Position numbers: made by a program
Shown here: one piece after another, positions 23,301 to 24,628 of the stretch
Layout: every line of letters begins with the position of its first letter
How positions within the stretch are numbered: position 1 is the first letter of the stretch
From: Escherichia coli
GTDB lineage: Bacteria > Pseudomonadota > Gammaproteobacteria > Enterobacterales > Enterobacteriaceae
NCBI RefSeq assembly: GCF_003334785.1
Contig: NZ_QOWV01000006.1
Strand: one strand, 5' to 3'
DNA length: 64,000 nucleotides

Positions 23301-24628
23301 CAGCTACAAAGCTGGCATGGCACGCCGTATCGTTATGGTGGCATGACGCGGCGCGGTGTGGACTGTTCGGGATTTGTGGTTGTGACGATGCGCGATCGTT
23401 TCGATTTGCAGCTGCCCCGTGAAACCAAACAACAAGCCTCTATTGGCACGCAAATTGATAAAGACGAGTTGCTGCCAGGTGACCTGGTCTTTTTCAAAAC
23501 GGGGTCCGGACAAAATGGTTTGCATGTAGGTATTTACGATACCAACAACCAATTTATCCACGCCTCTACCAGCAAGGGAGTGATGCGTTCCTCACTTGAT
23601 AATGTCTATTGGCAGAAAAATTTCTGGCAGGCGAGACGAATCTAGTATGTCGAAAAATGGACGGCGATGATACATCGCCGTCCATTTACTCCTGAATACA
23701 GTAGTATTTTGCAGACAAAAATTCCGTAAATGGATTATTCGTTTATAATCAGGATAATCTAAAAAAAGGACCCCTGAAAAAGTGGTTAACATGGAACAAA
23801 TGAAAGTTACTCCTTCTGTAATTGTTATGTCTTATGGCCTCATCCCTTTTAGCCGGATACTGAAAAACATCCTTCGAGAGGGACGGTTACCATGAAGATT
23901 TTTTTGGAGAATCTTTATCATTCTGATTGCTATTTCCTGCCGATAAGAGACAACCAGCAAGTCCTTGTCGGCGTTGAGTTAATTACCCATTTCTCCAGTG
24001 AAGATGGTACGGTTCGTATCCCGACGAGTCGGGTTATAGCGCAACTTACCGAGGAGCAACATTGGCAATTATTTTCAGAGCAGTTGGAATTACTAAAATC
24101 ATGCCAACATTTTTTTATTCAACATAAACTCTTTGCCTGGCTTAATTTAACGCCACAAGTGGCTACATTATTATTAGAGAGGGATAATTACGCAGGCGAA
24201 CTATTAAAATATCCGTTTATTGAACTGTTGATTAATGAGAATTACCCGCATCTCAATGAAGGAAAAGATAATCGCGGTCTTTTATCCTTATCGCAAGTGT
24301 ATCCCCTTGTGTTAGGTAATTTGGGAGCAGGCAATAGCACAATGAAAGCGGTTTTTGATGGTCTTTTCACCCGCGTCATGCTGGATAAAAGTTTTATTCA
24401 GCAACAAATCACGCACCGCTCCTTCGAACCGTTTATTCGTGCGATCCAGGCGCAAATTTCCCCTTGTTGCAATTGCATCATTGCGGGAGGCATTGATACG
24501 GCAGAAATATTGGCACAGATTACCCCCTTCGATTTCCATGCTCTCCAGGGATGCCTGTGGCCTGCCGTTCCCATAAATCAGATAACGACGTTGGTTCAGC
24601 GATAACCCTTCTGTTTGCTGGTGTTTAA

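Follow-up and report, generated by a model that had tools for sequence, protein, structure and literature searches.

YdiV (RflP/CdgR) of Escherichia coli K-12 is the product of an already well-known gene, for which crystal structures and many functional studies exist. It has a TIM-barrel-like EAL fold (PMC3510510) and neither hydrolyses nor binds cyclic di-GMP (c-di-GMP) (PMC3510510; PMC10333796). YdiV grips the FlhD subunit of FlhD4C2 via F155, F168, F181, A184 and helix alpha8, and the DNA binding of FlhD4C2 is blocked by YdiV in a concentration-dependent manner (PMC3510510). Moreover, class II flagellar promoters of E. coli no longer show their stochastic pulses when ydiV is deleted (PMC7002133). 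YdiV of Salmonella (STM1344) is also an anti-FlhD4C2 factor and, in addition, a ClpXP adaptor, whose promotion of ClpXP-dependent FlhD4C2 degradation is cited in PMC4173784. Proteins of the STM1697 type bind FlhD4C2 as well, according to PMC5622320. In this study, ydiV was analyzed in a 64,000-nucleotide stretch of E. coli DNA (contig NZ_QOWV01000006.1 of assembly GCF_003334785.1), which is referred to as the window. Our results suggest that this ydiV very probably encodes an FlhD-binding flagellar brake with a dead EAL domain and that the gene is an old, vertically inherited and fast-evolving paralogue of PdeH type.

The earlier note on this DNA had placed ydiV at positions 23892-24605 and named it an EAL-like anti-FlhDC factor. 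These coordinates were exact: they contain a single open reading frame (ORF) on the plus strand that starts with ATG, encodes 237 amino acid residues and includes the stop codon. The identification also held, as the polypeptide was 100% identical across its 237 residues to PDB 3TLQ_A and 4ES4_A (E about 1e-161) and its product is named "anti-FlhDC factor" in RefSeq. The title of 3TLQ is "Regulatory protein YdiV", and 4ES4 is the YdiV-FlhD complex, in which YdiV was deposited as "Putative cyclic di-GMP regulator CdgR". In the RefSeq annotation the gene order is nlpC, ydiV and selO, and the neighbourhood reads pheST-ihfA-btuCED-nlpC-ydiV-selO-hemP-aroH-ppsR-ppsA. The window matched K-12 derivatives exactly, and ydiV in the window did not differ from that of E. 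coli K-12 in either sequence or locus. In addition, of 5426 complete genomes of E. coli, 5410 contained a 1.7-kb stretch spanning ydiV with 97.8-100% identity.

The Pfam EAL model PF00563 matched YdiV weakly (E = 1.6e-7), with residues 14-222 aligned to model positions 16-232 of 236. This full-length match and the identity to the sequence of the solved structures place YdiV in the EAL superfamily. The sole NCBIfam match of YdiV was the PdeH (YhjH) equivalog NF008617, for which its score of 48.8 bits did not reach the curated cut-off of 190 bits. The metal-binding and catalytic roles of ten EAL positions are well established from RocR and TBD1265. These positions are the Glu of EAL, the Arg at +4, an Asn, the two Glu of ExxE, the two Asp of DDFGTG, a Lys, the Glu of EGVE and a Gln. 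For their assessment, PdeL and PdeH of E. coli MG1655 served as active references in alignments of 3 sequences (MAFFT), of 54 sequences with 51 family members, and of 12 sequences with nine syntenic orthologs and an STM1697-like relative. The 3-sequence alignment misplaced ExxE, and its placement was taken from the 54- and 12-sequence alignments, whose intermediate relatives carry the canonical motif.

Compared with PdeH and PdeL, six of the ten key positions of YdiV were replaced (R to H33, E to L113, D to G142, D to N143, K to M163 and E to G199). The other four were retained, which are E29, in a motif that reads E-L-I, as well as N85, E116 and Q219. At the site of EGVE, YdiV has G199-G200-I201-D202, with D202 in the place of the later Glu. 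In these alignments YdiV lacked the complete catalytic residue set of active EAL phosphodiesterases and no intact EAL catalytic motif was found, which confirms the proposal of the earlier note that the canonical catalytic signature has been lost. Similar losses were found in the orthologs, as all nine syntenic orthologs contained xN instead of DD and had likewise lost the Glu of EGVE. Different from E. coli YdiV, however, the orthologs of Erwinia and Edaphovirga retained the first Glu of ExxE and the Lys.

The retained EAL fold, the presence of E29, N85, E116 and Q219, and a groove with phosphate and glycerol that remains in the crystal structure (PMC3510510) would be compatible with a YdiV that still works as a c-di-GMP phosphodiesterase or a c-di-GMP sensor. 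Such a function is extremely improbable, given that both Asp of DDFGTG, the catalytic Lys, the Glu of EGVE and the first Glu of ExxE were replaced, that the score with the PdeH model was far under the cut-off and that published assays saw neither hydrolysis nor binding. On these grounds, YdiV was rejected as an active phosphodiesterase. PdeH has the same single-domain architecture and the same fold as YdiV, with about 20% identity over the full length, and both proteins act on motility. However, PdeH retains ExxE, DDFGTG, Lys and EGVE, hydrolyses c-di-GMP and promotes swimming, whereas YdiV, which is without these residues, inhibits the expression of flagellar genes through its binding to a protein.

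The residues of the FlhD interface, F155, F168, F181 and A184, and helix alpha8 were all present in YdiV of the window and, for the most part, were also found in the nine syntenic orthologs. In ordinary EAL proteins, helix alpha8 mediates dimerisation. The mechanism is known from published experiments with this very protein. YdiV is a stand-alone protein with an EAL fold in which the residues that c-di-GMP phosphodiesterases use for metal binding and catalysis are gone, and its remodelled helix alpha8 surface binds FlhD of the flagellar master activator FlhD4C2. YdiV thereby keeps FlhD4C2 off class II promoters or strips it from them and, in Salmonella, additionally hands it to ClpXP for degradation. 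In this way YdiV brakes flagellar synthesis at the post-translational level, and ydiV is a textbook example of how the domain of an enzyme can become a regulator that acts by protein binding. According to PMC9239255, SelO (YdiU) UMPylates FlhDC; thus, the conserved pair of ydiV and selO is functionally linked. A second role of YdiV, in the control of Fur through SlyD, is reported in PMC7515728.

Disrupted ydiV alleles recurred across E. coli sequence collections. Some were frameshifted, either after G200 (cluster P0011, 463 member sequences) or close to residue 153 (P0032, 123), whereas others continued in a foreign tail beyond residue 178 (P0020, 242) or had lost N-terminal parts (P0007, 158; P0029, 288). 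Moreover, IS1 was inserted in the stretch spanning ydiV of strain M159-1. Given these repeatedly broken alleles, the flagellar brake may have been lost recurrently.

Similar to E. coli YdiV, YdiV of Salmonella contains xN in place of DD, is without the Lys and the Glu of EGVE, and has the same FlhD-binding Phe residues. The two proteins are encoded by syntenic orthologs. They are, however, only 53% identical and their genes have unrelated promoter regions. The ydiV promoter of Salmonella is acted on by H-NS and CadC, whereas that of E. coli is bound by neither (PMC9728131). In addition, Salmonella YdiV is well expressed and E. coli YdiV is poorly translated (PMC4173784).

For comparison of divergence, ydiV and nlpC of E. 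coli were aligned with those of E. albertii, and the variable columns were counted by hand for each codon position. Among the 238 codons of ydiV, 48 first, 26 second and 101 third positions had changed, which corresponds to 15.5% for the first and second positions together and 42% for the third. The 155 codons of nlpC had 4, 1 and 62 changes, respectively (1.6% and 40%). Given that third-position divergence was equal in the two genes, they have shared their history since the split of E. coli and E. albertii. The divergence at the first and second positions, in contrast, was about ten times higher in ydiV than in nlpC. The excess change in ydiV fell at replacement positions, which fits relaxed purifying selection. 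With a crude ratio of first and second to third positions of about 0.37, pervasive positive selection was not indicated. The amino acid identities of YdiV to its homologs of E. albertii, Salmonella and E. fergusonii were 73, 53 and 49%, respectively, compared with 97, 86 and 90% for NlpC and 92, 82 and 83% for SelO. After catalysis was lost, purifying selection on YdiV would have been relaxed except at the fold and the FlhD interface, and YdiV would now change about ten times faster than its neighbours. ydiV is a core gene that is syntenic across a bacterial order, and its replacement sites evolve about ten times faster than those of the neighbouring genes.

A contig search with YdiV alone identified only five Escherichia loci, and exact-peptide patterns miss orthologs of about 50% identity; ydiV was found in all other Escherichia species that this search recovered. 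More distant homologs were picked from the protein searches at increasing distance, and their contigs were then looked up for synteny. The ydiV gene was immediately upstream of selO in Salmonella (53% identity), E. fergusonii (49%), Citrobacter amalonaticus (50%), Buttiauxella (44%), Cronobacter (40%), Erwinia psidii (36%) and Edaphovirga (29%). These are seven other lineages, or eight with E. coli, and they span Enterobacteriaceae and Erwiniaceae. The nlpC gene was upstream of ydiV in all seven except Cronobacter, sometimes with one gene inserted in between. The position of ydiV directly upstream of selO would therefore predate the divergence of Enterobacteriaceae and Erwiniaceae.

The spacer between nlpC and ydiV contained a gene for a LacI-type regulator in Buttiauxella (L012, 2859-3833) and Cronobacter (L013, 2857-3849) and a lipoate-protein ligase gene in Edaphovirga (L015, 2842-3855). 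Despite these insertions, ydiV remained directly upstream of selO. In Erwinia psidii (L014, 6407-8744), genes for a dCache-GGDEF and a GAF-EAL protein came next after selO, so that the pair of ydiV and selO adjoins genuine c-di-GMP signalling genes. The E. fergusonii protein (L010, 1480-4711), which was 49% identical to E. coli YdiV and thus as distant as the Salmonella protein, had also lost E29 and N85. At the E. fergusonii locus, the ydiV leader could not be aligned with other Escherichia leaders, and btuE was absent between btuC and btuD.

The guanine-plus-cytosine (GC) content of ydiV was 42.3%, compared with 49.7% for nlpC, 52.8% for selO and 49.1% for the whole window. The GC contents at the first, second and third codon positions were 50.8, 33.2 and 42.9% in ydiV, 53.5, 42.6 and 52.9% in nlpC, and 61.4, 43.8 and 53.2% in selO. 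ydiV was therefore 7-10 points below its flanking genes and lower at each of the three codon positions, in agreement with the earlier note, which had described it as more AT-rich than nlpC and selO. The upstream spacer (246 nucleotides) was the most AT-rich part of the locus. The dip in ydiV was nevertheless modest (z = -1.4), given that 9.7% of the 714-nucleotide windows across the 64 kb had an equal or lower GC content and at least eight other stretches were as AT-rich as ydiV, including cedA/ydjO, the espL1 pseudogene, the ppsR-ppsA spacer, ydiP and ydiL/ydiM. Outside E. coli, a GC trough lay across the ydiV ortholog of every syntenic locus examined (seven lineages), with a GC fraction of 0.38-0.46 over most of the gene and 0.50 at the 3' end in Cronobacter, while adjacent selO had 0.44-0.66. 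The longest AT-rich stretch of the window, at about 9450-13570, contained ydiY, yniD and the frameshifted type III effector pseudogene espL1. If foreign DNA is sought in the window, this stretch is a more promising candidate than ydiV.

The earlier note had regarded the AT-richness as consistent with ydiV being a horizontally acquired gene that was later used as a flagellar regulator; its low GC would then be a remnant of an AT-rich donor. The GC difference at all codon positions is in line with such a transfer. So are the mobile relatives of the stand-alone EAL subclass, which have about 28% identity and are found on 231 plasmids and in a few P1-like phages, and the horizontal transfer inside this subclass that is noted in a review (PMC10333796). 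Moreover, the Salmonella ydiV promoter is silenced by H-NS, which is a silencer of foreign DNA (PMC9728131). However, ydiV is a core gene of E. coli (5410/5426), it occupies the same place beside selO in eight lineages across the two families, and its third-position divergence from E. albertii (42%, vs 40% for nlpC) shows that it was inherited together with its neighbours. A donor signature should also fade over such a time, yet the trough was found in every lineage; thus, low GC is no mark of a recent foreign origin. In addition, the mobile homologs were only 25-32% identical to YdiV and hence too distant to be the source of chromosomal ydiV, and the best curated match was enterobacterial PdeH. 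Among the marks of a recent islet, atypical composition was found (42.3 vs 49.1% GC, with z of only -1.4), whereas patchy distribution, broken synteny or out-of-step divergence, and mobility hallmarks were not. There were no tRNA genes within positions 15000-33000 of the window, no flanking direct repeats that bracket ydiV and no annotated mobility genes in the ydiV neighbourhood.

Acquisition of ydiV from an AT-rich donor is thus very unlikely, in view of its core status, conserved synteny, a trough in all orthologs and an nlpC-like third-position divergence. Of the previous interpretation, the identification as a degenerate EAL anti-FlhDC factor stands, and the horizontal acquisition deduced from AT-richness does not. 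The useful result is this correction, as the low GC at ydiV is not a sign of a recent foreign gene. Given that a core, syntenic ydiV keeps its GC trough and evolves fast, composition alone is a poor guide to horizontal transfer when regulatory genes are under weak constraint.

When 1.84 billion representative proteins were searched with YdiV, only 162 relatives were identified at E <= 0.001. Among the best 150 of these 162, nearly all full-length matches were stand-alone proteins of roughly 220-260 residues, and the named members of the family in the protein searches were from Enterobacterales. Scores with the PdeH model fell stepwise, from 121.8 bits for an STM1697-like protein (P0150) and 79.9 bits for Erwinia YdiV to 48.8 bits for E. 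coli YdiV and 30.7 bits for E. fergusonii YdiV. The loss of motifs among the syntenic YdiV orthologs was also stepwise. These graded scores and the stepwise loss fit a PdeH-like ancestor within the order that was followed by progressive decay, and point to YdiV as an old, vertically inherited PdeH-type paralogue. This agrees with the literature, in which the two proteins YdiV and STM1697 are described as "most similar to YhjH" (PMC10333796).

STM1697 (PDB 5HXG) belongs to the same subclass as YdiV (E = 1.6e-21). Different from YdiV, the STM1697-like protein P0150 keeps near-canonical motifs (ELLTR-type, ExxE, DDxGxG, K and EGVE). STM1697 and the EAL-like proteins of plasmids and phages were about 25-30% identical to YdiV and are located elsewhere or on mobile elements. 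The YdiV family has stand-alone EAL-like paralogues (about 28% identity) on 231 plasmids, mostly of E. coli. A few P1-like phages also carried copies, whose identities were 25-32% and of which one is annotated as "putative anti-FlhC(2)FlhD(4) factor", and phrog_32988 matched YdiV with E = 2e-21. Mobile elements may carry flagellar brakes of their own.

Bacterial mutation is generally biased from G:C to A:T. The simplest account of the AT-richness of ydiV is weak constraint, low expression and this general bias. We infer that low GC goes with weak constraint and low expression and is possibly reinforced by selection on regulation. The trough lies at the same locus in eight lineages although the protein has changed by up to about 70%, and it may thus have been selected. 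In that case, the AT-richness of ydiV and its leader would offer a binding site for silencing of the H-NS type or would throttle translation by way of AT-rich codons, so that the potent brake is kept at a very low and inducible level. Conservation of the trough in eight lineages despite protein change of up to 71%, the leader as the most AT-rich part (38% GC), the binding and silencing of Salmonella ydiV by H-NS, which CadC displaces (PMC9728131), and E. coli ydiV being transcribed yet poorly translated (PMC4173784) all agree with such selection. In gel-shift assays, however, neither H-NS nor CadC bound to the promoter of E. coli ydiV (PMC9728131), the leader folds no better than shuffled sequences, and relaxed constraint with the G:C-to-A:T bias yields the same trough without selection. 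Selected AT-richness is therefore considered unlikely. If it is true, the throttle would be rewired in each lineage by an anti-silencer specific to that lineage, for example by CadC in Salmonella.

Several points weigh against ydiV as a dead-EAL flagellar brake of old, vertical descent. E. coli ydiV is transcribed and poorly translated (PMC4173784), and its role in E. coli was doubted for a time (PMC4173784; PMC7002133). The assignment of YdiV as an FlhD4C2 brake is drawn from published experiments with the identical protein. For its own list of ten residues, the structural paper gives eight as lost and two as retained (PMC3510510), compared with the four retained here; the counts differ because the lists of ten residues differ. 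The suggested PdeH-paralogue origin is based on graded profile scores rather than on a phylogeny. The probable cause of the low GC is likewise deduced, and the low GC fits relaxed constraint and selected AT-richness alike. Finally, the nlpC-selO junction was compared in ydiV-bearing lineages only, which leaves a slim chance for an ancient transfer of ydiV that predated the split of Enterobacteriaceae and Erwiniaceae. The low GC of ydiV is not evidence for such a transfer.

Table 1. Positions of ydiV, its neighbours and its sequence features in the window.
Feature	Coordinates	Strand	Basis
nlpC, upstream neighbour, C40 peptidase lipoprotein	23181..23645	+	ORF and RefSeq annotation
nlpC-ydiV spacer, promoter and leader region of ydiV, 38.2% GC	23646..23891	+	composition
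Perfect hairpin with 15-nucleotide arms, just 3' of the nlpC stop codon	23655..23687	+	inverted repeat, compensatory arm changes
ydiV (rflP/cdgR) coding sequence, stand-alone degenerate EAL-like domain, anti-FlhD4C2 factor	23892..24605	+	ORF, PDB identity, RefSeq, Pfam EAL
E29-L30-I31-T32-H33, remnant of the EAL motif; Glu retained, Arg at +4 replaced by His	23976..23990	+	alignments
L113-I114-N115-E116, ExxE position; first metal-binding Glu replaced by Leu, E116 invariant in the family	24228..24239	+	alignments
G142-N143-L144-G145-A146-G147, degenerate DDFGTG metal-binding loop	24315..24332	+	alignments
FlhD-binding surface, codons 155-192: F155, F168, F181, A184 and helix alpha8 (176-192)	24354..24467	+	residues named in PMC3510510
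M163 in place of the catalytic Lys	24378..24380	+	alignments
G199-G200-I201-D202 in place of E-G-V-E	24486..24497	+	alignments
selO (ydiU), downstream neighbour, conserved partner of ydiV in each lineage examined	24668..26104	+	ORF, annotation, synteny

In the spacer upstream of ydiV, the arms of the hairpin had compensatory C>T and G>A substitutions in other Escherichia, and the hairpin thus probably serves as the terminator of nlpC, with a weak T-tail that could permit read-through into ydiV. A scan for promoter and terminator consensus sequences gave counts equal to the expectation from shuffled sequences. The Rfam scan of positions 22500-27000 gave one match at chance level (SOX2OT, E = 0.3) and no known RNA element in the leader. 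A Shine-Dalgarno-like sequence, GAGAGGGA, was found at 23876-23883, about 10 nucleotides 5' of the ydiV ATG, and was buried in the minimum-energy fold of the leader. However, the energy of the leader fold (23780-23920) was no better than that of shuffled sequences (z = -0.59), and a structured translational switch is therefore not claimed. The leader was conserved within Escherichia, except for E. fergusonii. By eye, its 246 nucleotides contained seven GGA motifs, compared with roughly three expected from composition, and several of them were conserved across Escherichia. Translation of Salmonella ydiV is regulated by CsrA (PMC4173784); together with the GGA motifs of the leader, this makes CsrA a candidate for the poor translation of E. 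coli ydiV.

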